From: Oscillospiraceae bacterium
GTDB taxonomy: Bacteria; Bacillota; Clostridia; Oscillospirales; CAG-272
Assembly: GCA_015064735.1 (NCBI GenBank)
Contig: SVRP01000009.1
Coordinates: 8,474-72,473 of the forward strand
DNA length: 64,000 nt
Direction: 5' to 3'
The position numbers and the translations under genes are program-made. A model generated the notes under the pieces. That model saw only the letters and a list, made by a program, of their open reading frames with translations. It did not search any database and was not told where the DNA came from. Of this stretch, positions 11,420-51,587 are shown one piece after another. Position 1 is the first letter of the stretch, and each line of letters begins with the position of its first letter.

Positions 11420-11436
11420 AGGTATCTCCTTTTGCA

Positions 11437-24843: not shown

Positions 24844-24924
24844 TTAATTTGTATTATTTTTGTATATGCGATTTTGATCGCTAATACGAAGCCAAAAAAA
24901 TATGCAAAAAAGGAAAAAGGAAAA

Positions 24925-26223: not shown

Positions 26224-26225
26224 TC

Positions 26226-27965: not shown

Positions 27966-27966
27966 T

Positions 27967-28539: not shown

Positions 28540-28553
28540 GGAGAACACTAAAA

Positions 28554-29852: not shown

Positions 29853-29871
29853 TTTAAAGGAGGATTTTAAA

Positions 29872-32425: not shown

Positions 32426-32437
32426 TTGGAGGTAGCT

Positions 32438-34098: not shown

Positions 34099-34136
34099 AA
34101 ACCGAGGAATGCAAAAATGCTTTCCTCGGTTTTTTT
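34099..34136 (+). terminator. intrinsic terminator
   Basis: aaaccgagga...tcctcggttttttt. Confidence 0.75.
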
Positions 34137-34238: not shown

Positions 34239-34267
34239 TTGAAATAAAATCCTATATATGTTATAAT
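34239..34267 (+). promoter_or_regulatory. sigmaA promoter of mdh-fumC-hdr-flx-frd cluster
   Basis: TTGAAA-17nt-(TG)-TATAAT. Confidence 0.7.
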
Positions 34268-34312
34268 AATATGGTTATATTTTTATATTTTTCTTTTTTA
34301 AGGAGGTATATT

Positions 34313-35251
34313 GTGAATAAAATCGCAATAATCGGAACAGGAAGCGTTGGTTCTACAATCGCTTACACACTTACAGTTATGGGTATCGCATCGGAGATCG
34401 TTGTGATTGACATTAACAAGGAAAAGGCTCTCGGAGAAGCTCTTGACATTCGTCAGGGTACTCCCTTCTGCACCCCCTGCTCTATCTATGCCGGAGACTA
34501 CAGCGACGCCGCCGGTGCAAACATCGTGGTTCTTACCTGCGGTATTGCAAGAAGACCCGGTCAGACAAGACTTGAGCTTGCCCAGACCAACGTAGATATT
34601 ACCAAGCAAATAATTCCCCAGGTAACAAAATACGCGCCCAATGCAAACTATATCATAGTAAGTAACCCCGTTGATATCCTCACGTACACCTTCCACAAGT
34701 ATTCCGATCTTCCCGAAAACAGAATAATAGGTTCGGGTACTATCCTTGATACTGCACGTCTTCGCGCACGTCTTTCCGAGTACTACAAGATAAGCCAGAA
34801 GAACGTTCACGCTTACGTTTTCGGTGAGCACGGAGATTCCTCTTTCGTTCCGTGGTCTGTCGCAAACATTTCAAACATCCCGATTCACGAGTGTAAAAAG
34901 CTCGTTCCCGATATGGACCTTCCCGATCTCGATTATGCCGAGATTGAAGATTACGTTAAAAAGTCGGGCGGACGCGTTATCCAGAGAAAGGGAGCCACCT
35001 TCTACGCGGTTTCGATCTCTGTTTGCCACGTTATCCAGTGCTTGCTCAGCGGACTTGATTCTACTATGACCGTTTCCACCCTTATGCACGGTGAATACGG
35101 TATTGACGACGTATGTCTCAGCACCCTTTGTATAGTTGGTAACGACGGTATCCGTTGCAAGGTAAACGTTCCTTTGAACGACGAAGAAATCGCAAAGCTC
35201 CGCAAGAGCGCAGATACCCTCAAGGGTGTTATCAACAGCATCAACATATAA
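34313..35251 (+). CDS. mdh: malate dehydrogenase (LDH-like superfamily)
   Basis: GTGSVG Rossmann motif; specificity loop GIARRPGQTR has Arg at the position that is Gln in LDH; GEHGD; next to fumC; GTG start 34313 after AGGAGG. Confidence 0.8.
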   Translation: MNKIAIIGTGSVGSTIAYTLTVMGIASEIVVIDINKEKALGEALDIRQGTPFCTPCSIYAGDYSDAAGANIVVLTCGIARRPGQTRLELAQTNVDITKQIIPQVTKYAPNANYIIVSNPVDILTYTFHKYSDLPENRIIGSGTILDTARLRARLSEYYKISQKNVHAYVFGEHGDSSFVPWSVANISNIPIHECKKLVPDMDLPDLDYAEIEDYVKKSGGRVIQRKGATFYAVSISVCHVIQCLLSGLDSTMTVSTLMHGEYGIDDVCLSTLCIVGNDGIRCKVNVPLNDEEIAKLRKSADTLKGVINSINI

Positions 35252-35275
35252 GTACATTTTTAAGAGGTGAAATTT

Positions 35276-36652
35276 ATGGAATACCGTATTGAACACGATT
35301 CTATGGGCGATATGCAGGTTCCCGCTGACCGTCTTTGGGCGGCACAGACTCAGAGAAGCTGCGAAAACTTTAGAATTGGCGTGGACATCGAGACCATGCC
35401 CCGTGAGATAACCCACGCTTTTGGAATACTTAAAAAGGCTGCGGCTCTCGCCAACCACGAGCTTAAGAGTGAAAAGATGACCGCTGAAAAGCTTGAGGCT
35501 ATTTCCAAGGCTTGCGACGAGGTGATTTCGGGAGAGCTTAATTCTCACTTTCCTCTCGTTGTATGGCAGACGGGCTCCGGTACGCAGTCAAATATGAACG
35601 CCAACGAGGTAATAGCTAACAGAGCTAACCAGATAGCAGGCAAGAAGCTTGCTCATCCCAATGATGATATAAACATGAGTCAGTCCTCCAACGACACCTT
35701 CCCCACCGCAATGCACATTTCCGCGGTTATCGCTATTGAGGATAAGCTCATTCCCGCAATAGAGCTTCTTATTGAGACCTTCAAAAGGCTCGAAGCCGAA
35801 AACGAGGGCATAGTAAAATCGGGACGTACCCATCTTCAGGATGCGACTCCCATTAAATTCAGTCAGGAAATAAGCGGCTGGAGATCTTCTCTTGAGCGCG
35901 ACGTTGAGCTTCTCAAACTGGCTGTTGCTCCTCTTCGCGAGCTTGCTCTCGGTGGAACTGCCGTTGGTACGGGTCTTAACACCCCCAAGGGCTTTGACGT
36001 TCTCGTAGCAAAAAAGGTTGCGGAGCTTACCGGTAAGCCTTTTGTAACCGCATCCAACAAGTTCCATGCTCTTACCTCCAAGGATGAGCTGGTATTTGCT
36101 CACGGCGCTATCAAGGCAACCGCTTGCGATATGATGAAAATAGCTAACGACGTTCGTTGGTTGGCTTCGGGTCCCCGCGACGGTCTCGGTGAGATCTTCA
36201 TTCCCGAAAATGAGCCCGGCTCCTCTATTATGCCCGGTAAGGTCAACCCCACCCAGTGTGAGGCTGTTACTATGGTAGCCGTTCAGGTGATGGGTAATGA
36301 CGTTGCTGTTTCCATGGCAGCGTCTCAGGGTAACTTTGAGCTTAACGTATTTATGCCCGTTGCGGCTTACAATTTCCTTCAGTCTGCAAGACTTCTTGCA
36401 GAGTCTATCGTTTCCTTTAACAACAACTGCGCTGTTGGAATCAAGGCTAACAAGGAAAAAATGCACCACAATCTTCATAACTCCTTAATGCTTGTTACCG
36501 CGCTCAACCCCTACATCGGATACGAAAATGCGGCAAAGACCGCCAAGAAGGCTTATAAGGACAACATCTCCCTTAAGGAGGCTTGTGTTCAGCTTGGTTT
36601 CCTTACGGAGGAAAAGTTTGACGAGGTATTCCACCCCGAACAGATGGTATAA
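35276..36652 (+). CDS. fumC: class II fumarate hydratase
   Basis: WQTGSGTQSNMN, HPND, SSNDTFPT, GRTHLQDA, GSSIMPGKVNP. Confidence 0.97.
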   Translation: MEYRIEHDSMGDMQVPADRLWAAQTQRSCENFRIGVDIETMPREITHAFGILKKAAALANHELKSEKMTAEKLEAISKACDEVISGELNSHFPLVVWQTGSGTQSNMNANEVIANRANQIAGKKLAHPNDDINMSQSSNDTFPTAMHISAVIAIEDKLIPAIELLIETFKRLEAENEGIVKSGRTHLQDATPIKFSQEISGWRSSLERDVELLKLAVAPLRELALGGTAVGTGLNTPKGFDVLVAKKVAELTGKPFVTASNKFHALTSKDELVFAHGAIKATACDMMKIANDVRWLASGPRDGLGEIFIPENEPGSSIMPGKVNPTQCEAVTMVAVQVMGNDVAVSMAASQGNFELNVFMPVAAYNFLQSARLLAESIVSFNNNCAVGIKANKEKMHHNLHNSLMLVTALNPYIGYENAAKTAKKAYKDNISLKEACVQLGFLTEEKFDEVFHPEQMV

Positions 36653-36674
36653 TTCAAATTTTTTGGAGGTAATA

Positions 36675-37466
36675 ATGAAAGTAAGTTATTTCCCCGGATG
36701 TACGCTCAGAACAAAGGCAAAGGAGCTTGACCTTTATGCTCGCAGAAGTGCTGAAGTCCTCGGCATCGAGCTTTGCGAGATAGAGGACTGGCAGTGCTGC
36801 GGCGGTGTTTTCGTATCTGCCAAGGACGAGATCGCTTCCAAGCTCTCCTCGGTACGCGCTCTTCGTGCCGCAAGAGACGAGAACATGCCTTTGGTAACCG
36901 TATGCTCGGCTTGTCATAATGTTATAAAGCAAACTAACCACGCAATGCAGACCGATGAGACCTTCGCAAACAGAGTAAACAACTACCTTGCGCAGGACAA
37001 AACTCCCACCGAATATCACGGTGAGACCGAGGTTCTTCATTATCTTGAAATGCTCCGCGACATGGTAGGATTTGACAAAATAAAAGCGGCTGTGAAGAAT
37101 CCACTCACAGGAAAGAAGATCGCGGCTTACTATGGCTGTCTTCTTCTTCGTCCCGGCAACGTAATGGCTTTCGATGACGTAGAAAATCCCACGATTATTG
37201 AGGATTTCATTCGCGCTATCGGAGCGGAGCCGATTATATACGCCCAGAGAAACGAGTGCTGCGGCGGCTACATAGCTCTCGAGGACCCCGCTACCGCAAA
37301 AAAGAGAAGCAACGCGGTTTCCGAAAATGCCGCAAATTGCGGTGCTGAAATGATAGTTACCGCTTGTCCTCTTTGCAAATACAATCTCGTAAAAAACGGT
37401 TCTTCTATTCCCGTTATTTATTTTACCGAGCTCCTTGCTGAAGCGCTCGGAGTTAAGGAGGGCTGA
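36675..37466 (+). CDS. hdrB: heterodisulfide reductase subunit B-like
   Basis: Two CCG domains: YFPGC..CCG..CSAC and YYGC..CCG..CPLC; start moved to ATG 36675 (GGAGG RBS). Confidence 0.9.
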   Translation: MKVSYFPGCTLRTKAKELDLYARRSAEVLGIELCEIEDWQCCGGVFVSAKDEIASKLSSVRALRAARDENMPLVTVCSACHNVIKQTNHAMQTDETFANRVNNYLAQDKTPTEYHGETEVLHYLEMLRDMVGFDKIKAAVKNPLTGKKIAAYYGCLLLRPGNVMAFDDVENPTIIEDFIRAIGAEPIIYAQRNECCGGYIALEDPATAKKRSNAVSENAANCGAEMIVTACPLCKYNLVKNGSSIPVIYFTELLAEALGVKEG

Positions 37467-37468
37467 TC

Positions 37469-37861
37469 ATGCACAATAATTCCGAAAAACAAAAGGAACA
37501 GCTTCTTCGCATGAGCGGTGTAAATCCCCTCAAATGTATGAAGTGCGGAAAATGCTCTGCAACCTGCCCCTCTTACGACGAAATGGAATATCACCCCCAT
37601 CAGTTCGTTTACATGGTAGAATCGGGGGACATTGAGACTTTGAGAAAATCCGACTCTATCTACAAGTGTCTTACCTGCTTCGCTTGCGTTGACCGTTGTC
37701 CCAGAGGCGTTGAGCCCGCAAAGCTTATCGAAGCTCTCAGACTTTCTGTTATCCGCGAGAAGGGCGCAAATCACCTTAAGGCGGAGGACATTCCCGCTCT
37801 CATCGATGACGATACGCCTCAGCAGGCGGTCATGAGCGCATTCAGAAAATACTCTAAGTAG
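37469..37861 (+). CDS. hdrC: heterodisulfide reductase subunit C-like
   Basis: CMKCGKCSATCP and CLTCFACVDRCPRG. Confidence 0.9.
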   Translation: MHNNSEKQKEQLLRMSGVNPLKCMKCGKCSATCPSYDEMEYHPHQFVYMVESGDIETLRKSDSIYKCLTCFACVDRCPRGVEPAKLIEALRLSVIREKGANHLKAEDIPALIDDDTPQQAVMSAFRKYSK

Positions 37862-37878
37862 GAAAGGAGAAAACAACT

Positions 37879-39873
37879 ATGCAAAGAATTGGCGTATTTG
37901 TCTGCCACTGCGGTACCAACATCGCAGGAACGGTAGACGTTAAAGCAGTTGCAGAAGCACTCAAGTCAGAGCCCGGTGTTGTTATCTCCACCGAGTATCA
38001 GTATATGTGCTCTCAGGCAGGACAGGATCTTATAAAGGCGGCTATTGCCGAACACAAACTGACGGGCATCGTTGTATGCTCCTGCTCGCCCCGTATGCAC
38101 GAGGCAACCTTCAGAAAGACTGCCGCTGCGGCAGGACTCAACCCCTACATGGTCGAAATAGCAAATATCCGCGAGCAGTGCTCTTGGGTACATAAGGAAA
38201 TGACAATCGGCACCGAAAAGGCTATAATCCTCGGAAAAGCAGCTATTGCTAAGGTAAACCTTAACGCTCCCCTTACCCCCGGAGAGAGCCCTGTAACAAA
38301 GCGCGCCCTCGTTATCGGAGGCGGTATTGCGGGCATTCAGACCGCTCTCGACATTGCAGACGCAGGCTTTCCCGTTGATATAGTTGAGACCAAGCCCACT
38401 ATTGGCGGTAAGATGGCTCAGCTTGACAAAACCTTCCCCACCCTCGACTGCGCGGCTTGTATCCTTACACCTAAGATGGTTGACGTTGCGCAGAACGAGA
38501 ATATCAGAATATTCTCTTACAGCGAAGTAACCGAGGTTGGCGGATTCGTAGGAAACTTCGAGGTTACAATTAAGAAAAAGGCTCGTTACGTAAAGGAAGA
38601 CCTCTGTACCGGATGCGGTCTCTGCACCGAAAAGTGTCCTCAGAAGAAGGTTCCCAATGAGTTTAACCTCGGAATGGACAACAGACGCGCAATCTACATT
38701 CCCTTTGCTCAGGCAGTTCCGAAGGTTGCGACCATCGACCCCGACTACTGTACTATGCTCAAGACCGGCAAGTGCGGAGTCTGCTCCAAGGTTTGTACCG
38801 CAAAGGCTATAGACTATCAGGCAAAGGATGAATTTATTACCGAAAAATACGGCGCTATCGTTGTAGCTACCGGATTTAACCCCATTTCCATGGATAAATT
38901 CGATGAGTATGCCTACTCACAGTCTCCCGACGTTATCACATCTCTTGAGCTTGAGCGTCTTATGAATGCCGCAGGTCCTACGGGCGGTACACTTCTCCGT
39001 CCCTCCGACAGAGAGCATCCTCACACTATCGTTCTCGTTCAGTGTGTAGGCTCCCGTTGCGCAGCCTGCGCCGAAAAGGGCAAGGAGTATTGCTCTAAGA
39101 TATGCTGTATGTATACTGCTAAGCATGCAATGCTTATCCGTGATAAATATCCCGACACCGAGGTTTACGTATTCTACATAGACGTTCGTACTCCCGGTAA
39201 GAACTTCGACGAGTTCTATCGCAGAGCCGTTGAGGAATACGGAGTTCACTACGTTAAGGGTATGGTCGGTAAGGTTACTCCCGAGGGCAAGAAGCTCAAG
39301 GTTCAGGCTTCCGATCTTATCGCTAACAAGCAGCTCCACATTGATGCCGATCTCGTAGTTCTCGCGGCAGCTATTGAGCCCGACAAGTCGGCTCGTCCTT
39401 TGGCTACTATGCTTACGGCAAGCATGGATACCAACGACTTCTTCACAGAGGCTCACCCCAAGCTCCGTCCCGTTGAGAGCCCCACGGCAGGTGTATTCCT
39501 TTCGGGCGCATGTCAGGGTCCCAAGGATATTCCCGAGACCGTTTCCCAGGCAGGAGCTGCGGCATCCAAGGTAATCGGACTTCTCTGCAAGGACAAGCTC
39601 ACGGGTAACCCCTGCGTTGCTCATTCCGATGAGCTTATGTGTAACGGCTGTTCCACCTGCGCAAACGTATGTCCTTACGGAGCGATCTCCTATATCGACA
39701 AGGAATTCAGAATGCCCGACAGAACGACAAAGATTCGTCGCGTAGCATCTGTTAACGAGGCTGTGTGCCAGGGTTGCGGTGCTTGTACCGTTGCTTGTAT
39801 GTCCGGTGCTATGGATCTTAAGGGCTTCCTTAACAAACAAATTATGGCGGAGGTAGATGCAATATGCAAGTAA
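37879..39873 (+). CDS. hdrA: heterodisulfide reductase subunit A-like (FAD, Fe-S)
   Basis: IGVFVCHCG.NI, CSPRMHE.TF, NIREQCSWVH, GGGIAG, KTFPTLDC, QCVGSR, CS.ICC, several ferredoxin motifs. Confidence 0.95.
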   Translation: MQRIGVFVCHCGTNIAGTVDVKAVAEALKSEPGVVISTEYQYMCSQAGQDLIKAAIAEHKLTGIVVCSCSPRMHEATFRKTAAAAGLNPYMVEIANIREQCSWVHKEMTIGTEKAIILGKAAIAKVNLNAPLTPGESPVTKRALVIGGGIAGIQTALDIADAGFPVDIVETKPTIGGKMAQLDKTFPTLDCAACILTPKMVDVAQNENIRIFSYSEVTEVGGFVGNFEVTIKKKARYVKEDLCTGCGLCTEKCPQKKVPNEFNLGMDNRRAIYIPFAQAVPKVATIDPDYCTMLKTGKCGVCSKVCTAKAIDYQAKDEFITEKYGAIVVATGFNPISMDKFDEYAYSQSPDVITSLELERLMNAAGPTGGTLLRPSDREHPHTIVLVQCVGSRCAACAEKGKEYCSKICCMYTAKHAMLIRDKYPDTEVYVFYIDVRTPGKNFDEFYRRAVEEYGVHYVKGMVGKVTPEGKKLKVQASDLIANKQLHIDADLVVLAAAIEPDKSARPLATMLTASMDTNDFFTEAHPKLRPVESPTAGVFLSGACQGPKDIPETVSQAGAAASKVIGLLCKDKLTGNPCVAHSDELMCNGCSTCANVCPYGAISYIDKEFRMPDRTTKIRRVASVNEAVCQGCGACTVACMSGAMDLKGFLNKQIMAEVDAICK

Positions 39874-40298
39874 AAGAATATAAGCCCCTTATCGTGGCGT
39901 TCTGTTGTAACTGGTGTTCCTACGCGGGCGCAGACCTTGCGGGAAACAACAGACTTAACTACCCTGCTGACGTAAAGATCATACGAGTTCCCTGCTCCTG
40001 CAGAGTTAACCCCATGTTCATTCTCCGCGCGTTCCAGAGAGGCGCGGACGGTGTTATAATCTGCGGTTGCCACCCCGGCGACTGCCACTACACCTCGGGT
40101 AACTACTACACCCGCCGCCGTATGGCTCTTCTCTTCTCTATGCTCGACTACCTCGGCATAGAAAGAGAACGTACCCGCGTTGAATGGGTATCCGCTGCTG
40201 AGGGCGCAAAGTTTGCGGCTACTATGAACGACTTCGCAGAGAAGGTTGCTTCTCTTGGCGAAAACAAGAGATTGGAGGATTTACGATGCAAGAAATAA
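39864..40298 (+). CDS. flxD: MvhD-like [2Fe-2S] subunit (FlxD)
   Basis: FCCNWCSYAGADLAG, RVPCSCRV, GADGV...GCHPGDCHY, WVSAAEG. Confidence 0.88.
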   Translation: MQVKEYKPLIVAFCCNWCSYAGADLAGNNRLNYPADVKIIRVPCSCRVNPMFILRAFQRGADGVIICGCHPGDCHYTSGNYYTRRRMALLFSMLDYLGIERERTRVEWVSAAEGAKFAATMNDFAEKVASLGENKRLEDLRCKK

Positions 40299-41272
40299 CC
40301 CGTGATATTCTCTTAGAACGCGCAGAGGCTCTTCTTGCTGACGGCACGGTTGACCGTGTTCTCGGTTGGAAAAAGGGTGAGTTTGCATACGACGTAACTC
40401 CCGCCGTATTCACTACGGCTGATGAGCTTCGCGCAGAGTTCGTATGGAACGATTTCTGCGGAGCTAACTTCTCCAAGTATCTCATAAAGGAGACCGCAAA
40501 GAAGGACACTAAGGTTCTCGTTTTCCTTAAGTCCTGCGATACATACAGCTTTAATCAGCTCCTTACCGAGCATCGCTTTGACAGAGAAAAGGTTTACGTA
40601 ATCGGTGTTCCCTGCAACGGCATGCTCGATCCCAAGAAGGTAAAAGACAAAGCAGAGAGTGTTCTTTCTGTTACCGATAACGGAACAGAGGTCGCTATTG
40701 AGACTCTTTACGACGGTATCGTTACCGTAGCAAGAGATGAGCTTCTCCCCGACAGATGTCTTAATTGTAAGTCTAAAAAGCATGTAGCCTACGACGAGCT
40801 TCTCGGAACCGAGGGAGACGTTGTTGCAAACGCAAGATTTGACGAGGTTGCCCGCCTTGAGGCTATGACTCCCGACGAGCGCTTTGCATTCTGGCAGAAC
40901 GAGCTTTCCCGTTGCATCCGTTGCAACGCTTGCCGCGACGTTTGTCCCGCTTGTACCTGCGAAAAGTGCGTATTTGACAACCCCAATTCGGGTGTTGACA
41001 ACAAGGCTCCCGCAAATGAGTTCGAGGAAAAGATGTTCCACATCATCCGCGCATTCCACGTTGCGGGCAGATGCACCGACTGCGGCGAATGCTCCAGAGT
41101 TTGTCCTCAGAGCATTCCTCTCCACCTGCTCAACCGTAAGTTCATCAAGGACATTGACGAGTTCTACGGAGAGTATCAGGCAGGAGCAGAGGCAGGAAGC
41201 CGCGCTCCTATCGTAAACTACGACCTTAACGACCTGGAGGCATCCGAGGCAGTTGAAAGGGGGAACGAATAA
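40286..41272 (+). CDS. flxC: 4Fe-4S dicluster protein (FlxC-like)
   Basis: CIRCNACRDVCPACTC..C, RAFHVAGRCTDCGEC.RVCP. Confidence 0.8.
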   Translation: MQEITRDILLERAEALLADGTVDRVLGWKKGEFAYDVTPAVFTTADELRAEFVWNDFCGANFSKYLIKETAKKDTKVLVFLKSCDTYSFNQLLTEHRFDREKVYVIGVPCNGMLDPKKVKDKAESVLSVTDNGTEVAIETLYDGIVTVARDELLPDRCLNCKSKKHVAYDELLGTEGDVVANARFDEVARLEAMTPDERFAFWQNELSRCIRCNACRDVCPACTCEKCVFDNPNSGVDNKAPANEFEEKMFHIIRAFHVAGRCTDCGECSRVCPQSIPLHLLNRKFIKDIDEFYGEYQAGAEAGSRAPIVNYDLNDLEASEAVERGNE

Positions 41273-42297
41273 TGCGTAAAATAGCAGTAAACAATCTCGA
41301 TTCCCTTTTTGCCGCAATCGCTGCGGAATACAAGCTTTATATTCCCGTTGATACCGATGCGGGGGCTAAGTTCTCCGAATGGAGCGAGGGCGCAAAGCTT
41401 TCCGACGCGCTCAATACTGTAAGAAGCGCAAAGGATTTCTTCTTCCCTCAGACCGAAAATCTTGTCGATTTCAAGATGGAGGGAAAAACCATTGAAATAA
41501 TCGACAACAGAAGCGAGTGCGAGGATTTCGCGGTATTCGGAGTTCGCGCTTGCGACGTTAAGAGCTTTGAGATACTCGACAGAGTATTTCTTTCCGAGCC
41601 TGTCGATACGTACTACAAAAACCGCAGAGACCACGGTGTAATAATCTCCATGGCTTGTAACAAGCCTGCCGAGACCTGCTTCTGCGGAACCTTTGGCATT
41701 GACGCGTCCGCTCCCGAGGGAGATATAGTTTGCTACAAGACCGACGATATTCTCTATCTTGAGGCTAAGACCGAGAAGGGTGAGAAGCTTCTCGCTCTTG
41801 TAGCGGCCTTGACCGAGGATACCGATAATTCGGCTGTTGAAGCGCAGAAGAAGCTCATCAAGGAGCGTCTTGACAGACTTCCCTTGAAAAATCTCAAGGC
41901 TGACGCGTTTGGCGACGGCAAGACAAGCAAGTTCTTTGATGCTCCCGAATGGAGCGAGCTTTCCGAGACCTGTCTCGGTTGCGGAACCTGCACCTTTGTT
42001 TGCCCAACCTGTCAGTGCTACGACATCAAGGATTTCAACACCGGACACGGCGTTAAGCGTTTCCGTTGCTGGGATTCCTGCATGTATTCCGATTTCACAA
42101 GAATGGCGCACGGAAACTCCCGTAACAGCCAGCTTGAGCGTTTCCGTCAGAGATTTATGCACAAGCTTGTGTACTATCCCACCAACAACGACGGTCTCTT
42201 CTCCTGCGTAGGCTGCGGAAGATGTATTTCCAAGTGCCCCATCAATATGAACATTGTTAAAGTTATGAAAAAGCTGGGAGGAAAGGAAAATGACTGA
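41272..42297 (+). CDS. flxB: AsrA-like 4Fe-4S protein (FlxB)
   Basis: CLGCGTCTFVCPTCQC, RCWDSC, RFRQRFMHK, CVGCGRC...CP. Confidence 0.82.
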   Translation: MRKIAVNNLDSLFAAIAAEYKLYIPVDTDAGAKFSEWSEGAKLSDALNTVRSAKDFFFPQTENLVDFKMEGKTIEIIDNRSECEDFAVFGVRACDVKSFEILDRVFLSEPVDTYYKNRRDHGVIISMACNKPAETCFCGTFGIDASAPEGDIVCYKTDDILYLEAKTEKGEKLLALVAALTEDTDNSAVEAQKKLIKERLDRLPLKNLKADAFGDGKTSKFFDAPEWSELSETCLGCGTCTFVCPTCQCYDIKDFNTGHGVKRFRCWDSCMYSDFTRMAHGNSRNSQLERFRQRFMHKLVYYPTNNDGLFSCVGCGRCISKCPINMNIVKVMKKLGGKEND

Positions 42298-43123
42298 CAT
42301 GAAAGAAGCTCTCATTCCCGTTTTGGGTGTCGTTACCGATATCCGTATCGATACCCCCGACGTAAAAACCTTCCGCGTTGTAACCCCCGACGGCAAAAAA
42401 GCATTTGACCACAAGCCCGGTCAGTGCGCTATGCTTTCGATCCCCGGCGTAGGCGAGGCAATGTTCTCTATTACCTCATCTCCTACAAATACCGAGTTCA
42501 TGGAATTTTCCATAAAGAAATGCGGTTGTCTTACCGATTGGCTCCACTCTATGGAGGTAGGTCAGCAGGTAACGATCCGTGGTCCTTACGGAAATCCCTT
42601 CCCCGTTGATACTGCTTTCGTAGGTCAGGATATGCTCTTTATTGCGGGCGGTATCGGACTTGCTCCCCTGCGCTCTGTCATAAACTACTGCCGTCATTAC
42701 CGCGACAGATACGGTAAGATAGACATAGTTTACGGTTCAAGAAGCATGCAGGATCTCGTTGACTACAAGGAGATAATCGACGAATGGGCAACCGACGCAG
42801 GTGTTAACGTACATCTCACCATAGACCGCGAGCAGCCCGAATGGACGGGACACGTCGGTTTCGTTCCCAACTACGTAAAGGAGCTTGGATTTGATACCAA
42901 CAAAACAGCTATCCTCTGCGGTCCTCCCATTATGATCAAGTTCACTTTGGCAGGACTTCAGGAGCTTGGCTTCGACAAAACACAGATATACACCACACTG
43001 GAGCTTCGTATGAAATGCGGTTTCGGTAAGTGCGGACGTTGCAACGTAGGCGCAAAGTACGTTTGCAAGGACGGTCCCGTTTTCCGTTGCGACGAGCTTG
43101 ACGAGCTTCCCGACGAATATTGA
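42290..43123 (+). CDS. flxA: AsrB/PyrK-like FAD/NAD-binding [2Fe-2S] subunit (FlxA)
   Basis: PGQ, IRGPYG, AGGIGLAPLR, CGPPIM, MKCGFGKCGRC, CKDGPVF. Confidence 0.88.
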   Translation: MTDMKEALIPVLGVVTDIRIDTPDVKTFRVVTPDGKKAFDHKPGQCAMLSIPGVGEAMFSITSSPTNTEFMEFSIKKCGCLTDWLHSMEVGQQVTIRGPYGNPFPVDTAFVGQDMLFIAGGIGLAPLRSVINYCRHYRDRYGKIDIVYGSRSMQDLVDYKEIIDEWATDAGVNVHLTIDREQPEWTGHVGFVPNYVKELGFDTNKTAILCGPPIMIKFTLAGLQELGFDKTQIYTTLELRMKCGFGKCGRCNVGAKYVCKDGPVFRCDELDELPDEY

Positions 43124-43139
43124 TAAAGGAGAACATCTC

Positions 43140-43814
43140 ATGGAAAATATGGTAAATATTTATCTTTACGGCAAAAAGTACGAAGTACCCGCAAGCCTTA
43201 CTATAATGAATGCCATGGAGTACGCAGGCTATCAGCTCGTTCGCGGAGTCGGATGCCGTTGCGGATTCTGCGGGGCTTGTGCTACCATCTACCGTATAAA
43301 GGGACAGAACGAGCTTAAGACCTGTCTTGCTTGTCAGACTAAGGTCGAGGACAATATGTACATAGCTACTCTCCCCTTCTTCCCCCTCGTTAAGCAGCCC
43401 TACGATATTGAAAAGGTAAAGCCCACAGAGCAGATCATGATGCAGCTTTATCCCGAAATATACGCTTGCGTTGGCTGTAACGCCTGTACCAAGGCTTGTA
43501 CTCAGGACCTTAACGTAATGCAGTATATCGCTTACGCTCAGAGAGGCGAATACGAAAAGTGCGCTGAGGAATCCTTTGACTGCGTAATGTGCGGTGTTTG
43601 CTCATCACGTTGCCCCGCAGGTATTACGCATCCCCAGGTTGGTCTCCTTGCCCGCCGTCTTACCGGTAAGTATCTCGCTCCCGAAACTCAGCACCTCCTC
43701 GAAAGGGTTGCCGAGATAGAATCGGGCAACTGCGAGGCTGCTCTTCAGGACATCATGCACAAGACCGCGGAAGAGCTCAAGGAAATGTACAACAACCGTG
43801 ATTTTGAGAAATAA
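43140..43814 (+). CDS. frdB: soluble fumarate reductase/succinate dehydrogenase Fe-S subunit
   Basis: CRCGFCGAC...CLAC [2Fe-2S] plus CVGCNAC...C and CVMCGVC...CP; start moved to ATG 43140. Confidence 0.8.
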   Translation: MENMVNIYLYGKKYEVPASLTIMNAMEYAGYQLVRGVGCRCGFCGACATIYRIKGQNELKTCLACQTKVEDNMYIATLPFFPLVKQPYDIEKVKPTEQIMMQLYPEIYACVGCNACTKACTQDLNVMQYIAYAQRGEYEKCAEESFDCVMCGVCSSRCPAGITHPQVGLLARRLTGKYLAPETQHLLERVAEIESGNCEAALQDIMHKTAEELKEMYNNRDFEK

Positions 43815-43828
43815 GGAGGAGCCGAGAA

Positions 43829-45478
43829 ATGTATACACCCGAAATGTTAGAATCCATTAAAAAGGTTGAGGCTACACGTGAGGAGCGTTTAAAACAGGTT
43901 CTCGCCGGCAACCATCCCCGTCGTATGACCGCGGAGGAAAAGGATCAGGTTCTTCTTGAAAATCACCCCGACCATATTCAGTCTCAGTTCGCTGAGCTTG
44001 TTATCGGTCCTAATAAGGGCGAAAAGGTTCCGCTTGAGCTTGCCGAGATGCTTCAGGCTAACCCCAGAGTTAAGCCCTCTGATATTGACCTTTCCAAGAT
44101 CGATTACGACGTTGACGTACTCATTATCGGCGGCGGCGGAGCAGGTTCCGCTGCGGCTATTATGGCTCACGAAAACGGCGCAAACGTAATGATCGTTACA
44201 AAGCTTCGCCACGGTGACGCAAACACCATGATGGCTGAAGGCGGTATTCAGGCAGCTGATAAGCCTAACGACAGTCCCGCACAGCACTACCTTGACGTTA
44301 TGGGCGGCGGACACTTCAAGAACGTTCCCGAGCTGGTTTACAAGCTCGTTAACGACGCTCCCGTATGTATCAAGTGGCTCAACGACCTTGGCGTTATGTT
44401 CGACAAGGAAGCTGACGGAACCATGGTTACCACCCACGGCGGCGGAACCTCCCGCAAGCGTATGCACGCCGCAAAGGACTACTCGGGCGCTGAGATCATG
44501 AGAGTTCTCCGCGACGAGGTACAGAACAGGCAGATCCCCGTTGTTGATTTCACCTCGGCTATCGAGATAATCAAGGACGAAAACGGCAGAGCGGCAGGCG
44601 CGGTTCTTATGAACATGGAGACGCAGGAGCTCCTTATCGCGAGAGCCAAGACCGTTATCATCGCAACCGGTGGCGCAGGCCGTATGCACTATCAGGGCTT
44701 CCCCACCTCCAACCACTACGGAGCAACCGCTGACGGTCTCGTAATGGCTTACAGAGCAGGCGCTCCACTCCTTTATGCTTACACACTCCAGTATCACCCC
44801 ACGGGTGCTGCTTACCCCTCACAGATATTCGGCGCGCTCGTAACCGAGAAGGTTCGTTCTATCGGCGCTCAGCTTATCAACGCTGACGGCGAAGCATTTA
44901 TGTATCCCCTTGAGACCCGCGACGTTTGCGCATCAAGCGTTATCCGCGAGTGCAAGAGAGGCAAGGGTGTTGACACCTTTGACGGCGGTAAGGGTATCTG
45001 GCTCGACTCTCCTATGATCGACATGATCCACGGCGAGGGAACCATTGAAAAGCGTATTCCCGCTATGATGCGTATGTACCTCAAGTACGGTATTGATATG
45101 CGTAAGCAGCCTATACTTATCTACCCCACTCTCCACTACCAGAACGGCGGTATCAAGATTGCCGATAACGGTATGTCCGACGTTGAAAATCTCTTTGTTG
45201 CAGGTGAGGCAGTCGGCGGTATCCACGGTGAGAACAGACTTATGGGTAACTCCCTCCTTGACATTATCGTATTCGGTAGAAACGCGGGTGTTCATGCTGC
45301 TGAGGCCGCAAAGAATACTAAGGTTGGCGAGAAGCTCAGCCTTGACCACGTTGAAAGCTTTATGAAGGAAATGGCTGACGCAGGTATCGTAACCGACGCT
45401 GTATCCCCCAAGCTTCTTCCCAGATATACTCACGGAAATCCCGTATTCGACGAGCCTAACGCAAAGCTCATGAAATAA
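43829..45478 (+). CDS. frdA: soluble fumarate reductase flavoprotein subunit (FrdA/TfrA-like)
   Basis: GGGGAG, AEGG, ATGG, QYHPT, TEKVR, TRD, HYQNGG, HGENRLMGNSL. Confidence 0.85.
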   Translation: MYTPEMLESIKKVEATREERLKQVLAGNHPRRMTAEEKDQVLLENHPDHIQSQFAELVIGPNKGEKVPLELAEMLQANPRVKPSDIDLSKIDYDVDVLIIGGGGAGSAAAIMAHENGANVMIVTKLRHGDANTMMAEGGIQAADKPNDSPAQHYLDVMGGGHFKNVPELVYKLVNDAPVCIKWLNDLGVMFDKEADGTMVTTHGGGTSRKRMHAAKDYSGAEIMRVLRDEVQNRQIPVVDFTSAIEIIKDENGRAAGAVLMNMETQELLIARAKTVIIATGGAGRMHYQGFPTSNHYGATADGLVMAYRAGAPLLYAYTLQYHPTGAAYPSQIFGALVTEKVRSIGAQLINADGEAFMYPLETRDVCASSVIRECKRGKGVDTFDGGKGIWLDSPMIDMIHGEGTIEKRIPAMMRMYLKYGIDMRKQPILIYPTLHYQNGGIKIADNGMSDVENLFVAGEAVGGIHGENRLMGNSLLDIIVFGRNAGVHAAEAAKNTKVGEKLSLDHVESFMKEMADAGIVTDAVSPKLLPRYTHGNPVFDEPNAKLMK

Positions 45479-45485
45479 TCGAATT

Positions 45486-45521
45486 TTCAGGCGAGCTCGC
45501 ACATGCGAGCTCGCCCTGAAA
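45486..45521 (+). terminator. GC-rich hairpin after frdA (terminator or processing/stability site)
   Basis: ggcgagctcgca / tgcgagctcgcc with flanking ttcag/ctgaa; no strong U tract. Confidence 0.5.
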
Positions 45522-45636
45522 TGCGTAAAACTGAACGGATATATTGTAGACAGAAATCCGTTTCTGTTTGAAATATACCCGTTCAATCACAATTTAACTT
45601 TAATTTGTATTTTTAATTATTATTTGGAGGCATAAA

Positions 45637-46926
45637 ATGCAAATCTTCAGTTTTTTTGACGGCAAATTCTCGTTATCCATCAACGGCGTAACATTCCTCA
45701 TTTTTTCGGTTTTGCTTATAGCAGGTCTTGGATATCTCCTCGGCCGTATAACCATAAAGGGAGTTAACCTTGGAACCGCGGGAGTTTTTCTCGTAGCTCT
45801 TCTCTTCGGTTGCTTCTTCTTCAATCCCATTGACAAAATGTTCCCTTCCCTTGCAGGAACGGGAATAGCAGAATGGTGGCCCAATCTTTCAGAGCAGCTT
45901 AAGGGATACACGGGTAACGCATTAAAGGTCGTTGAAAACCTCGGTCTTATTCTCTTTGTAACCTCTGTTGGCTTTATTGCAGGTCCCAAATTCTTTGGCA
46001 ATCTTAAGAAAAACTTCAAGACCTATATTCTTCTCGGTCTCGTTATCATAATTTCGGGAGCTCTCGTATGCGCGGGCTGTATCGCTCTTGCGCAGGCTAC
46101 TATGAAGGACGTTCCCGGTCAGCAGCTCACAGCTATTATGACAGGTCTGTTCTCCGGCGCGCTTACTTCTACCCCCGCATTCTCAGCCTCTAAGGAAGCA
46201 ATCGGACCCGAGCTTTCCGAGTATGTTGCGGTAGGTAACGGAATTGCTTACATATTCGGTGTTATCGGCGTTGTTCTCTTCGTTCAGCTCATTCCCAAAT
46301 TCATGAAGGCAGATATGGCGGCTGAGCGCGCAAAGCTCTCCGGTGGCAGCGGAGACAACGGCGAAGATCCCGTTGAAGTTAAGAACGAAAGAAAGTTCAT
46401 TGAAATAGATCCCTTTGGAATTGCGGCATTCGCTGTAGCAGCGATCCTCGGTGTTCTCGTTGGAACCGTAAAGATCGGTTCTTTCTCTCTGACTACCACC
46501 GGCGGATGCTTGCTCGTAGCTCTTATATTCGGACATTTCGGGCACTTCGGTCCCATAAAGGTTATGCCTCCCGCGGCAACCCTTAAGGTTTTCAGAGAGC
46601 TCGGTCTTATGCTCTTCCTTATCGGCGCGGGAATTGCAGGCGGCGCAAAGTTCGTAGAGTGCTTCCAGGCTATCTACTTCCTCTACGGCGCGCTTATGAC
46701 CCTTGTACCCATGATCATTGGATTTATCTTCGCAAAGTACGTTTTGAAGCTTCATTTGCTCAATGCTCTCGGCTCAATTACGGGAGGTATGACATCTACC
46801 CCCGCACTCGGAACTCTAATTCAGGTTTCGGGTACTGAAGACGTTGGAGCTGCATACGCGGCTACCTATCCTATTGCGCTTATTTCCGTAGTTCTTTCGT
46901 CTCAGATACTCATTATGATATTCTAA
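45637..46926 (+). CDS. AAE-family (AspT/YidE/YbjL) transporter, candidate succinate exporter
   Basis: Duplicated membrane halves with 'LG.AGVFLVAL', 'GALTSTPA' and 'GGMTSTPAL..YAATYP'; short linker, no TrkA-C domains. Confidence 0.8.
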   Translation: MQIFSFFDGKFSLSINGVTFLIFSVLLIAGLGYLLGRITIKGVNLGTAGVFLVALLFGCFFFNPIDKMFPSLAGTGIAEWWPNLSEQLKGYTGNALKVVENLGLILFVTSVGFIAGPKFFGNLKKNFKTYILLGLVIIISGALVCAGCIALAQATMKDVPGQQLTAIMTGLFSGALTSTPAFSASKEAIGPELSEYVAVGNGIAYIFGVIGVVLFVQLIPKFMKADMAAERAKLSGGSGDNGEDPVEVKNERKFIEIDPFGIAAFAVAAILGVLVGTVKIGSFSLTTTGGCLLVALIFGHFGHFGPIKVMPPAATLKVFRELGLMLFLIGAGIAGGAKFVECFQAIYFLYGALMTLVPMIIGFIFAKYVLKLHLLNALGSITGGMTSTPALGTLIQVSGTEDVGAAYAATYPIALISVVLSSQILIMIF

Positions 46927-46931
46927 AGAAC

Positions 46932-46954
46932 GGGCTGTCTCACAGAGACAGCCC
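46932..46954. repeat. palindromic intergenic repeat copy 3 (shortened)
   Basis: GGGCTGTCTC-aca-GAGACAGCCC right after transporter stop. Confidence 0.75.
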
Positions 46955-46996
46955 ACTCTTTGAAGAATTATATTCAAATTGAAAAAGGATATAAAA

Positions 46997-48620: not shown

Positions 48621-48662
48621 AAAAGTGGCTGTCTCAAATTTTCATTTGAGACAGCCACTTTT
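48621..48662. repeat. palindromic intergenic repeat copy 4, bidirectional terminator
   Basis: aaaagt-GGCTGTCTCAAAT-tttc-ATTTGAGACAGCC-actttt; core is the exact reverse complement of copy 2. Confidence 0.85.
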
Positions 48663-50742: not shown

Positions 50743-51587
50743 AATACTCTTACCTCAATTCCGTATTCGTTAAATATTTCTATTCTTGGTTGCGGAGGTA
50801 TATCTCCGTCAAAATCTGTTACGTATTTTCTGCCCATGAGCAAATATTTGCCTCCCGCCATCTTATTGTACGGCAGAAGCTCTATTTTTCCTACTCCGAG
50901 GCTACTCATAAATGCTGCGGTCTCTCTTATGTTTTTCTCCGTATCGTTTACCGTGGGTATCAGGGGAATTCGGGTTATGAAATCCTTACCGCTCCTTGCA
51001 AGCAGCTTGTAATTCTCAAGAATCTGACTATTGTCCACACCTGTATAATGCTTATGAATCTCGCTGTCCATATGTTTAAGGTCATACAGAACAAAATCAC
51101 ATTCTTCAAGAACCTTCAAAAACACGTCCCGCTCGGCAAATCCGCAGGTCTGGAGGGCTCTGTTGGTCTTTCCCCTCAAAAGCTTCATACATTCAAGAAC
51201 AAACTGCCAATGAGACAGAGGCTCGCCACCCGAAAAGGTTACTCCCCCTCCGCTCATATTGAGTATGCTTATATTCTTTTTGATCCTTTCGACCATCTCC
51301 TCGGGGGTATAGTCTATACCGCTCTCGCGCACAAGCTTTCTTGGGCATACCCCCGCACTTTCGGGCACAAGACAAGGCTTTCCGGTAAGTTCCTCACCCT
51401 TTTTCATGCACGCTCCGCACCCCAAGCATCCGTTAGGACTTCTCGCCATTTCTTTTTCGAAGCGTTGCCCCTCGGGGTTATGACACCACATGCAACGAAG
51501 AGGACACCCCTTCATAAAGATAGTCATTCTTATACCCGGACCGTCGTAGGTAGAAAATTCCTCAATTGAGAAAACTCTTCCGACCAT
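50739..51587 (-). CDS. glycyl-radical enzyme activating enzyme (radical SAM)
   Basis: DGPGIR..F.KGCPLRCMWCHNPE, GGVTFSGGEP, RIPLIP, LLPYN. Confidence 0.93.
   Translation of the reverse strand: MVGRVFSIEEFSTYDGPGIRMTIFMKGCPLRCMWCHNPEGQRFEKEMARSPNGCLGCGACMKKGEELTGKPCLVPESAGVCPRKLVRESGIDYTPEEMVERIKKNISILNMSGGGVTFSGGEPLSHWQFVLECMKLLRGKTNRALQTCGFAERDVFLKVLEECDFVLYDLKHMDSEIHKHYTGVDNSQILENYKLLARSGKDFITRIPLIPTVNDTEKNIRETAAFMSSLGVGKIELLPYNKMAGGKYLLMGRKYVTDFDGDIPPQPRIEIFNEYGIEVRVL

Follow-up and report, generated by a model that had tools for sequence, protein, structure and literature searches.

A conserved hdrBCA-flxDCBA-frdBA gene set with mdh and fumC in an uncultured Clostridia bacterium: a proposed quinone-independent pathway of succinate formation from oxaloacetate

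The locus described here raises the question of how a soluble fumarate-reductase-type flavoprotein encoded beside an Flx-Hdr gene set would receive its electrons, and whether their passage to fumarate would be coupled to the reduction of ferredoxin. It lies in a window of 64,000 nucleotides (the whole stretch of DNA analysed) from the 2.1-Mb genome of a member of the Clostridia, uncultured and living in gut or rumen. Gene starts were adjusted from the sequence after ORF calling, and families were assigned using Pfam-type domains and NCBIfam models. The resulting features are collected in Table 1.

Layout and conservation of the locus

Family assignments made for all 12 genes reproduce the gene content of the first-pass annotation, which had placed the twelve behind a single promoter. 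Eleven of them, mdh-fumC-hdrBCA-flxDCBA-frdBA, are indeed tightly packed 3′ of a promoter-like site, with intergenic spacings from mdh to frdA of 15, 22, 2, 17, -10, -13, -1, -8, 16 and 14 nt. The twelfth, encoding an AAE-family transporter, shares the strand of the others, but it follows frdA only after a gap of 158 nt that contains a strong hairpin, and it has a weak promoter-like site of its own, which leaves its place in the same transcriptional unit uncertain. At the other end, the predicted intrinsic terminator of the upstream gene sets the 5′ boundary of the operon, and the promoter-like site falls between this terminator and the ribosome-binding site of mdh. The promoter match is weak by itself, because the scan returned 23 such sites where shuffled sequences gave 15.8 ± 4.9; its position, however, fits. 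Metatranscriptome contigs from four bovine-gut runs of one study cover mdh to frdA at 92-99% likeness and span the flxA/frdB and frdB/frdA junctions; DNA carry-over is possible, and they constitute weak RNA evidence for the operon.

Table 1. Predicted genes and signals of the locus (window coordinates)
Feature	Position	Strand	Assignment and evidence
Intrinsic terminator	about 34100-34136	+	Upstream gene; hairpin and U-run, -21.1 kcal/mol, z -5.5
Promoter-like site	34239-34267	+	TTGAAA, 17 nt, TG-extended TATAAT; 11/12 matches plus TG
Ribosome-binding site	34301-34307	+	AAGGAGG, 5′ of mdh
mdh	34313 (GTG)-35251	+	LDH scaffold with Arg, predicted NADH malate dehydrogenase; Ldh_1_N, Ldh_1_C
fumC	35267-36652	+	Class II fumarate hydratase; TIGR00979, 705.7 bits (cut-off 664.75); Lyase_1, FumaraseC_C
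hdrB	36675-37466	+	Two CCG domains; PF02754 twice; ten conserved Cys
hdrC	37469-37861	+	Two [4Fe-4S] motifs; TIGR03290 and Fer4 matches
hdrA	37879-39873	+	Full-length flavin/Fe-S subunit, presumed bifurcating site; match to 5odc_A
flxD	39864-40298	+	MvhD-type [2Fe-2S] protein; PF02662, E 1.1e-55
flxC-like	40286-41272	+	Fe-S protein, named by position; Fer4 dicluster, residues 205-277
flxB	41272-42297	+	Fe-S protein like sulfhydrogenase beta subunit and AsrA; Fer4_22
flxA	42290-43123	+	FAD/NAD(P)H-binding, [2Fe-2S] site, presumed NADH entry; FAD_binding_6, NAD_binding_1, DHODB_Fe-S_bind
frdB	43140-43814	+	Divergent Fe-S subunit; Fer2_4, Fer4
frdA	43829-45478	+	Soluble fumarate-reductase-type flavoprotein; FAD_binding_2, residues 96-476
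Hairpin	45485-45522	+	Between frdA and AAE gene; strong, no U-run, -29.3 kcal/mol, z -5.35
Weak promoter-like site	45594-45623		5′ of AAE gene; 9/12
AAE gene	45637-46926	+	AAE-family (Asp-Al_Ex) transporter, 429 aa; PF06826 in two or more stretches

The proposed linkage of the frd genes with hdr and flx is borne out by synteny. The order hdrB-hdrC-hdrA-flxD-flxC-flxB-flxA-frdB-frdA recurs in 57/57 loci whose upstream flank extends for 7.3 kb or more, drawn from 80 picked by FrdA likeness (69% identity or more), although such counts are not independent, because the loci were chosen by this likeness and are mutually related. The same order is found in the loci of relatives (6/6), and 41 related genomes divide into 10 with both an FrdA orthologue and HdrA and 31 in which neither was found. 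The variable parts are mdh (41/53 loci) and fumC (38/53), one or both of which belong to the operon in 49/53. As for the transporter, in which no TrkA_C domain was detected, it is presumed to be a succinate exporter or dicarboxylate exchanger; its gene does lie 3′ of frdA, as had been claimed for an exporter within the unit, but within 3 kb in only 40/60 loci.

Enzymes from oxaloacetate to succinate

The mdh product, encoded by the sole Ldh-family gene found in the genome, scores above the NCBIfam L-LDH cut-offs. At the specificity position (Gln102), however, it carries Arg80, which aligns with the Gln of the LDH 4m1q and with the Arg of 1y6j, and arginine occupies this position in 43/43 cluster-linked homologues, in agreement with its earlier description as an Arg-type MDH. 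Together with the class II fumarase, this LDH-type MDH would yield fumarate.

The following step would fall to FrdB and FrdA, which by sequence are non-canonical and Tfr-like. FrdB contains two complete CxxCxxCxxxC motifs besides a [2Fe-2S] motif, their cysteines being conserved across loci; it weakly matches the N-terminus of TfrB (NCBIfam), and domain searches revealed no CCG domain in it. FrdA has a 95-aa N-terminal extension and an Asn at the covalent-FAD His position, and a domain search found it to be devoid of Succ_DH_flav_C. Its predicted dicarboxylate site (H323, R343, H436 and R470) is kept in 80/80 loci and aligns with the corresponding His/Arg residues of SdhA and NadB chains. Every NCBIfam cut-off is missed by both proteins: the best model for FrdA is TfrA (338.7 against a cut-off of 718), and the sdhA/frdA and nadB models give 273.8 (cut-off 567.3) and 272.1 bits. 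Fumarate is consequently assigned as the substrate on the strength of these four residues and of the mdh/fumC context.

The near-equal sdhA/frdA and nadB scores, the missed cut-offs and the rank of NadB chains among the best PDB sequence matches would also suit an L-aspartate oxidase, or a reductase of another unsaturated acid, served by Hdr/Flx. We consider this highly improbable. In structural comparisons, the FrdA model (pLDDT 92.9) finds E. coli FrdA (1kf6_A) as its top match, with FrdA and SdhA leading and NadB ranking 44th. On contig C7, nadA is overlapped at its end by another FAD_binding_2 gene, the two forming a nadA-nadB pair; FrdA is therefore unlikely to be the housekeeping L-aspartate oxidase, an identity which the first-pass annotation had named as fatal to its proposal. 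Moreover, FrdA has a dedicated Fe-S partner in FrdB, to which it is naturally fused in the homologue P0127, and mdh and/or fumC accompany it in most loci.

The Flx-Hdr set and the passage of electrons to fumarate

The CCG domains of HdrB are defined by C9, C41, C42, C77 and C80 and by C155, C195, C196, C231 and C234, all kept in 57/57 loci. HdrB matches methanogen HdrB structures over its full length (E 1e-46), while its best NCBIfam match is SdhE (9.6e-47; 159.9 bits against a cut-off of 500). Eight cysteines of HdrC are conserved across loci. HdrA, encoded by the one hdrA gene of this genome, aligns with the solved methanogen HdrA 5odc_A (E 2.7e-203; query 3-661, chain 5-648), keeps both ferredoxin-type domains and has 29 conserved cysteines, including four CxxCxxCxxxC motifs. 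Among the Flx subunits, FlxC contains 15 conserved cysteines and N-terminal FrhB_FdhB matches below cut-off, and FlxB matches the ShyB, HydB and AsrA models, each under its cut-off.

Domain and NCBIfam searches found no frdCD, hydrogenase large subunit or dsrC among the 12 cluster genes, as stated in the first-pass annotation. In the genome, which is 95% complete, the DsrC family gave no match, and no UbiA-family (quinone) prenyltransferase was found by a search whose control was positive in 14/14 genomes, in keeping with the quinone-free route that had been suggested. Rnf (RnfD) and two [FeFe]-hydrogenase genes were found, so that predicted ferredoxin sinks are present, and a GTP-type PEPCK is encoded.

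A complex model of HdrB, HdrC and FrdB reached a score of 0.83, whereas the best of three controls stayed at 0.00; the score mark is reached by 58/80 solved complexes and 2/110 mismatched pairs, a calibration that is only rough because custom alignments were used and three chains submitted. Runs share at least 94% of contacts, with partner pLDDT of at least 76. In this model, the ferredoxin domain of FrdB is predicted to dock on the first CCG site of HdrB: FrdB residues 96-137 and 159-161, around C110, C113 and C116, are in contact with residues 9 and 38-41 of HdrB (C9 and C41) and with the C-terminal tail of HdrC (105-130). No similar complex is evident by sequence, since the HdrB profile retrieved only HdrB among solved chains.

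On balance, gene content, cofactor motifs, strict linkage and genome context favour an operon whose products would convert oxaloacetate to succinate in the cytoplasm, independently of quinones, with Frd docked on Flx-Hdr and ferredoxin most likely reduced by bifurcation; beyond the modelled docking, the bifurcation itself and the way the electrons run are inferred. The divergent, two-subunit soluble FrdA/FrdB would be joined via FrdB to HdrB and HdrC of FlxABCD-HdrABC. NADH would enter at FlxA, and FlxB, FlxC and FlxD would carry electrons to the HdrA flavin. The high-potential branch would then run from HdrC through the two CCG clusters of HdrB, acting as a relay rather than a disulfide site, to the Fe-S clusters of FrdB, the FAD of FrdA and fumarate, while the low-potential branch, through flavin-based bifurcation, would most likely serve to reduce ferredoxin (2 NADH + fumarate + oxidised ferredoxin → 2 NAD+ + succinate + reduced ferredoxin). 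Rnf or [FeFe]-hydrogenase could consume the reduced ferredoxin, and the dicarboxylate would be moved by the AAE-family transporter, often encoded next door.

With all ten cysteines kept, thiol/disulfide chemistry may nevertheless occur at the CCG site of HdrB. Flx-Hdr would then reduce a soluble disulfide (either in a protein or formed by a pair of small thiols) at HdrB, and FrdAB would re-oxidise the thiol as a methanogen-style thiol:fumarate reductase. The available text of PMC7282089 has Flx-Hdr passing electrons to 'ferredoxin (and thiols)', and homologues are named tfrAB in that of PMC6315080. Among NCBIfam models, FrdA also scores best with TfrA, and partial matches to TfrB are given by each of FrdB, HdrC and HdrB. 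TfrB, however, is said to oxidise thiols through its CCG part, and FrdB lacks the CCG domains found there. Because of this, and because a genome-wide search found CCG domains only in HdrB, DsrC was not found and the model puts FrdB directly over the first CCG site, direct transfer from NADH through Flx, HdrA/C/B and FrdB/A to fumarate, with bifurcation to ferredoxin, is probably the mechanism, and the thiol route appears distinctly unlikely.

[quoted passage not shown] An energy balance for Blautia luti, as given in the text available from PMC12773636, assumes an NADH-dependent fumarate reductase. On the other hand, H2 is reported to abolish succinate formation in Pseudoclostridium thermosuccinogenes, from which the authors infer ferredoxin coupling (PMC7282089, section available). 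A full-length HdrA with both ferredoxin-type domains and its many conserved cysteines would be costly for a wire, and Rnf and hydrogenases able to use reduced ferredoxin are present. A non-bifurcating enzyme therefore seems rather unlikely.

Relation to known systems

The seven subunit types are those of FlxABCD-HdrABC of Desulfovibrio vulgaris, which Ramos et al. in 2015 reportedly proposed to act on the disulfide of DsrC; here, in contrast, no DsrC was found, a fumarate reductase is fixed beside the set and the order is hdrBCA-flxDCBA. The thiol:fumarate reductase TfrAB of Methanothermobacter, said to have been described by Heim et al. in 1998, is likewise soluble and quinone-independent and provides the top NCBIfam model for FrdA. 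FrdB, HdrC and HdrB match successive parts of TfrB (17-92, 119-220 and 374-477 of 488), but the CCG half of TfrB is missing from FrdB and is supplied by a separate HdrB. FrdA matches only 6-414 of the 546 residues of TfrA, ending after the FAD and capping part, and adds its N-terminal extension; the scores are far under the family cut-offs. In the case of SdhABE (type E succinate:quinone reductase/methylmenaquinol:fumarate reductase), SdhE, the CCG partner of SdhAB, offers a precedent, in that a CCG protein works there beside a fumarate reductase/succinate dehydrogenase Fe-S subunit. However, SdhE links to the membrane quinone, no quinone prenyltransferase was found here, and HdrB, well below the SdhE cut-off, resembles methanogen HdrB throughout.

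The flx-hdr-frd cluster of P. thermosuccinogenes, mentioned in the first-pass annotation, is documented by Koendjbiharie et al. (PMC7282089), who cite a 2019 preprint for it. In the available part of that paper, this 'succinate operon' encodes fumarate hydratase and a putative succinate transporter together with seven Flx-Hdr and two fumarate reductase genes, and is reported to rise about 4-fold under CO2 limitation. By this description, the parts list and the proposed function (fumarate reduction driven by NADH, with ferredoxin reduced in a coupled reaction) are the same, and a GTP-dependent PEPCK is used there. The present unit differs in being headed by mdh, in the assignment of its transporter to the AAE family and in its host, P. 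thermosuccinogenes being a thermophile. Of the entry enzyme and exporter once thought to set this version apart, only the in-operon mdh, itself variable among loci, exceeds the published description as available, a putative transporter being included there.

In tubeworm symbionts and Thioflavicoccus mobilis, tfrAB are interspersed with flxABCD-hdrABC in rTCA clusters, and a single complex with direct electron passage to the reductase has been proposed (Rubin-Blum et al. 2019, PMC6315080, as far as its available text goes). The Tfr-like reductase among flxABCD-hdrABC genes is shared; those clusters, however, serve autotrophic CO2 fixation with korABCD and aclAB, whereas a fermentative succinate branch is predicted here. 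An FrdA homologue from a marine Gammaproteobacteria MAG (P0130) is 47% identical and has the same N-terminal extension.

The coupling idea is thus not new, being in print twice in the available texts (PMC7282089 and PMC6315080), and the literature searched yielded no biochemical test of whether ferredoxin is reduced in an NADH- and fumarate-dependent manner. What is added here is the strict synteny, the co-occurrence, the genome context, the separate nadB, the non-canonical Frd and the docking model. If the proposal is true, succinate would be made without quinones by a soluble fumarate reductase wired to an NADH-oxidising, ferredoxin-reducing Hdr/Flx complex.

Layout and limits of the cluster

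Open reading frames together with Pfam and NCBIfam searches of the window place twelve genes in a single orientation, mdh-fumC-hdrBCA-flxDCBA-frdBA followed by a gene for an AAE transporter, in agreement with the gene families and common orientation listed by the first-pass annotation. Successive genes from mdh to frdA are separated by 15, 22, 2, 17, -10, -13, -1, -8, 16 and 14 nt. The intrinsic terminator of the preceding gene stands directly before the unit and marks its 5′ limit; the 554-aa open reading frame that ends in this canonical terminator matched no Pfam or NCBIfam family. The promoter-like site ahead of mdh agrees at 11 of 12 positions and carries a TG extension, and such matches are not rare, with 23 in the stretch and 15.8 ± 4.9 in shuffled versions of it. 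The start of mdh was set at a GTG codon with an AAGGAGG site ahead of it, because homology and the ribosome-binding site both point there, in preference to ATG 34271, which lies only 4 nt past the -10 box. For hdrB and frdB, the sequence and the onset of homology place the starts at ATG codons, and the longer open reading frames beginning at TTG 36492 and TTG 43098, respectively, were dropped in their favor.

The AAE gene follows as the twelfth after a 158-nt gap, which contains a hairpin of -29.3 kcal/mol without a U-run (45485-45522) and a weak promoter-like site; a second hairpin lies 3′ of the AAE gene. The next gene, encoding a ClC-type channel or exchanger, begins 52 nt past the AAE gene and probably lies outside the system, since of six relatives' loci only the closest keeps it (1/6) and it occurs within 6 kb in 0/60 species-representative loci. 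Convergent with the ClC gene is a unit encoding a 682-aa glycyl-radical enzyme (PFL-like and Gly_radical domains) with its radical-SAM activase, and the two share a bidirectional terminator-like hairpin. Elsewhere in the window, two predicted proteins stand out by their size (1159 and 1568 aa); they carry Laminin_G_3, right-handed beta-helix and Chlam_PMP repeats and are probably surface proteins. Another region holds an indolepyruvate/2-oxoacid:ferredoxin oxidoreductase-like pair (POR_N/TPP_enzyme_C and POR) between two phenylacetate-CoA ligase-like genes (AMP-binding_C_2), followed by an ACT-domain gene; the set suggests a unit for fermenting aromatic amino acids, which would be a further ferredoxin-linked step. 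No Rfam family reached its gathering score across the whole window.

Positions of the cluster and of neighboring features in the window
Feature	Position	Strand
Very large predicted proteins, probably surface proteins	7958-16143	-
Oxidoreductase pair with ligase-like genes	24874-30300	
554-aa open reading frame	32426-34090	
Promoter-like site	34239-34267	
mdh (GTG start 34313)	34313-35251	+
hdrB, ATG start	36675	+
frdB, ATG start	43140	+
ClC-type gene	46979-48613	
Bidirectional terminator-like hairpin	48621-48662	
Glycyl-radical enzyme and activase	48694-51587	-

Enzymes and electron carriers encoded by the cluster

The product of mdh, the only Ldh-family gene found in its genome with this query, would probably be called a lactate dehydrogenase by automatic annotation. 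It passes two NCBIfam L-LDH cut-offs (355 against 339 and 337.7 against 303.55) and misses the MDH cut-offs (270.3 against 283 for NF004863), and all 60 PDB matches listed are named L-LDH or lactate dehydrogenase save 4q3n_A (MGS-M5). Its Arg80 aligns with a Gln in the LDH 4m1q and with an Arg in the Clostridium thermocellum chain 1y6j, and Arg occupies this position in 43/43 cluster-linked homologues. We take position 80 to correspond to the specificity position Gln102 of LDH, at which a change from Gln to Arg switches the preference to oxaloacetate; on this ground the initial assignment to an Arg-type malate dehydrogenase is upheld. FumC exceeds the class II fumarate hydratase cut-off (TIGR00979, 705.7 bits against 664.75). 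The AAE protein matches Asp-Al_Ex (PF06826, E = 8.5e-58) over at least two stretches, that is, with the duplicated domain, and Pfam found no TrkA_C domain in it.

By its sequence, the fumarate reductase of the cluster is not a classical one. FrdA, of 549 aa, contains FAD_binding_2 at residues 96-476, with no match to Succ_DH_flav_C (PF02910) and with a 95-aa N-terminal extension that matches no family. Its best NCBIfam model is TfrA (338.7 bits, cut-off 718), followed by sdhA/frdA (TIGR01812, 273.8 bits, cut-off 567.3) and nadB (TIGR00551, 272.1 bits, cut-off 452.75), and it therefore lies under all three. Residues H323, R343, H436 and R470, which we take to form the dicarboxylate site (two His, two Arg), align with His and Arg residues in chains of SdhA and NadB and are kept in 80/80 loci. 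Asn132, conserved in 80/80 loci, occupies the position of a His in the SdhA chain 7d6v_A, presumably the one that carries covalent FAD in FrdA/SdhA, and the enzyme appears to lack the residue for covalent flavin attachment. The AlphaFold model (pLDDT 92.9) is confident, including the N-terminal extension, and its top structural match is E. coli FrdA, with NadB at rank 44. A second FAD_binding_2 gene of the same genome, 30% identical to FrdA, starts at the end of nadA on another contig, so that the two form a nadA-nadB pair; this paralogue and the missed NadB cut-off argue against the possibility, raised at the outset, that FrdA is an L-aspartate oxidase.

FrdB, of 224 aa, carries one [2Fe-2S] motif along with two CxxCxxCxxxC motifs, both complete, hence no 3Fe-type motif, and sequence searches found no close solved relative. 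In TfrAB the Fe-S and CCG halves are fused within TfrB, whereas FrdB aligns to TfrB over 17-92 only, the CCG half being missing, and Pfam found no CCG domain in it. Among the database homologues, P0127 (727 aa) is a natural fusion of FrdB and FrdA, with [2Fe-2S] and Fer4 dicluster domains ahead of a FrdA part that is 53% identical to that of the window.

The cluster encodes the complete FlxABCD-HdrABC subunit set. HdrA, present in one copy in the genome, has flavin and Fe-S domains, matches the solved methanogen HdrA 5odc_A end to end (E = 2.7e-203, residues 3-661) and has 29 conserved Cys, including four CxxCxxCxxxC motifs. HdrB matches solved HdrB structures over its full length and retains both CCG motifs (ten Cys in 57/57 loci), and HdrC has two [4Fe-4S] motifs with eight conserved Cys. 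Among the Flx proteins, Pfam identifies FlxD as an MvhD-type protein and finds FAD-binding, NAD-binding and [2Fe-2S] domains in FlxA; FlxB is akin to the sulfhydrogenase beta subunit and AsrA, while FlxC is named solely by its Fe-S motifs and position.

Conservation and expression

In six relatives' loci, mdh, hdrBCA, flxDCBA and frdBA occur in the window order in 6/6, with fumC in 5/6 and the AAE gene in 5/6. Close relatives from a protein search, all at 91% identity or above, are labelled Ruminococcaceae, Oscillospiraceae or Clostridia bacterium. A scan of species-representative genomes gave at least 600 pattern matches, at least 580 of them confirmed, and counts were made on the best 80 of these confirmed loci (FrdA identity at least 69%). 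Since selection was by likeness to FrdA and the loci are related to one another, the counts apply to this FrdA subfamily and are not independent events. The order hdrB-hdrC-hdrA-flxD-flxC-flxB-flxA-frdB-frdA is invariant in the 57/57 loci whose sequence extends 7.3 kb or more upstream of frdA; where 9.7 kb or more is present upstream, mdh occurs in 41/53 loci and fumC in 38/53 (both in 30, neither in 4), and where 3 kb or more is present downstream, an AAE gene lies within 3 kb in 40/60 loci. Across 41 genomes (that of the window, 24 from the same genus and a further 16 from the same order), a FrdA orthologue of at least 62% identity and HdrA occur together in the same 10, and neither was found in the remaining 31, whose completeness is 70-100%. 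The synteny search proposed in the first-pass annotation thus returned a single gene order, and its concern that frd and hdr/flx might not be co-conserved is answered by the shared 10/41 genomes.

Identity to the window differs between modules. In three loci (L049, L052, L095) hdrA is 91-94% identical and frdA just 72-73%, and in three others (L017, L018, L083) frdA is 92-94% and hdrA 87-91% identical; among loci L017-L096, frdB follows frdA and the flx genes follow hdrA. This discordance suggests that lineages have exchanged the frdBA module against the hdr-flx module. Clusters of this type, with a FrdA of 69-72% identity, also occur on MAG contigs labelled Treponema/Spirochaetales, Synergistaceae, Planctomycetota and Bacteroides/Bacteroidaceae (L045, L050, L059, L061, L066, L071, L078, L088, L091); either the block moved horizontally or the contigs were misbinned. 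More distant homologues of FrdA that share the N-terminal extension come from marine Gammaproteobacteria/Thiotrichales MAGs (P0130, 47% identity) and from a record named Prochlorococcus sp. MIT 1201 (P0139/P0288, 42%).

Four bovine-gut metatranscriptome runs of one study contained 8-10% of the sampled words. Their short contigs span mdh to frdA at 92-99% likeness, most being 90-95% alike and therefore from relatives, and several cross the junctions hdrA/flxD, flxD/flxC, flxC/flxB, flxB/flxA, flxA/frdB and frdB/frdA; RNA-library contigs may be DNA-derived, and these bridging contigs are no proof of one transcript. Cover over the AAE and ClC genes (45523-48528) was near-empty in the four runs, which is not usable as evidence of a transcript end, and the joints between contigs are no more usable for this purpose. 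In Pseudoclostridium thermosuccinogenes, a succinate operon is reported in PMC7282089, by RNA-seq, to be about 4-fold up under CO2 limitation.

Proposed electron path and its meaning

A single Flx-Hdr-Frd assembly is the most likely reading of the cluster. NADH would be oxidized at FlxA and its electrons passed to the HdrA flavin, where they would be split, one branch running through HdrC, HdrB, FrdB and FrdA to fumarate and the other reducing ferredoxin. With textbook potentials of -320 mV for NADH, about +30 mV for fumarate/succinate and about -450 mV for ferredoxin, the overall reaction is exergonic when two NADH are used.

The contact that this path calls for was modelled with HdrB, HdrC and FrdB, each given as a 41-row alignment and FrdB serving as the partner; the structure prediction suggested at first pass, run on these three chains, did dock them. 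The model scored 0.83, a mark attained by 58/80 solved complexes and 2/110 mismatched pairs in a calibration that is only approximate here because custom alignments and three chains were used. The best of three controls scored 0.00, and swapping out HdrB abolished the score. Runs agreed in at least 94% of contacts, with a partner pLDDT of at least 76. The HdrB profile matched no solved chain other than HdrB, so that memory of a similar complex is not evident as the source of the score. The modelled interface comprises FrdB residues 96-137 and 159-161, around its first 4-Cys motif, HdrB residues 9, 12-14, 38-41, 54-58 and 104-109, including C9 and C41 of the first CCG motif, and the C-terminal tail of HdrC (residues 105-130). 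FrdB is thereby predicted to sit over the first CCG site of HdrB, where a disulfide would bind.

Alternatively, a diffusible thiol could shuttle between Hdr and Frd. In Desulfovibrio, the DsrC disulfide is the proposed high-potential acceptor of Flx-Hdr; the window encodes the same subunit set, but its 2.1-Mb, 95%-complete genome yielded no DsrC family match. Nor was any CCG domain found in this genome beyond the two of this HdrB, and together with the absence of a CCG domain from FrdB and the modelled docking of FrdB on the disulfide-binding site, this makes a thiol mediator the disfavored explanation. Direct transfer within one assembly would still allow Flx-Hdr to act as a plain wire that does not bifurcate. 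Bifurcation is preferred because a complete HdrA is kept and because the genome encodes RnfD and two [FeFe]-hydrogenases. The genome also has a GTP-type PEPCK and a PYC_OADA protein, no ATP-type PEPCK, and no UbiA-family prenyltransferase, the control search for the last being positive in 14/14 genomes. Of the interpretation offered at first pass, the linkage of Frd to Hdr/Flx is borne out by the invariant order and shared genomes, while the bifurcation in this complex is something we infer. We consider evenly balanced the fuller proposal of a bifurcating Hdr-type complex devoid of disulfide chemistry, in which the HdrB CCG clusters only relay electrons to docked FrdB and the fumarate C=C bond is the high-potential acceptor, a block that, spread over hundreds of Clostridia species from gut and rumen and also on contigs assigned to other phyla, would give such bacteria, through ferredoxin and Rnf, their main quinone-free energy gain while they make succinate.

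The coupling hypothesis is already published, and the window cluster belongs to that proposed kind. As described in PMC7282089, the P. thermosuccinogenes succinate operon, CDQ83_RS03315-RS03365, comprises a fumarate hydratase, seven Flx-Hdr genes, two fumarate reductase genes and a putative succinate transporter; compared by description, the window matches this content, its in-operon mdh being the only part unnamed there, and the precedent named by the first-pass annotation is correct. For tubeworm symbionts and Thioflavicoccus mobilis, PMC6315080 describes rTCA clusters in which tfrAB is intermingled with flxABCD-hdrABC, and proposes a complex passing electrons directly to the reductase. The full-text literature searched, outside which most subscription journals lie, yielded no biochemical demonstration of the coupling, and the portions available of PMC8085960, PMC12773636 and PMC12887300 contain nothing on an Hdr-linked fumarate reductase.

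With the hypothesis in print, the value of the present analysis lies in the breadth of a strict and widespread linkage (at least 580 confirmed matches in species-representative genomes), in a genome context that speaks against a thiol mediator, and in a concrete docking model that would place FrdB on the first CCG site of HdrB, which together make the hypothesis directly testable. Records labelled as Lachnospiraceae isolates among the matches listed (L058, L086, L090) are apparent cultured carriers and make the experiment feasible. Succinate is a major gut cross-feeding and host-signalling product, and in the textbook pathway its formation depends on a quinol:fumarate reductase in the membrane. 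If the proposal is true, Clostridia without quinones would obtain one reduced ferredoxin for each fumarate and, via Rnf, an ion gradient; models of gut and rumen fermentation would need altered energy and hydrogen balances, and Hdr-type electron bifurcation would acquire a new class of acceptor.
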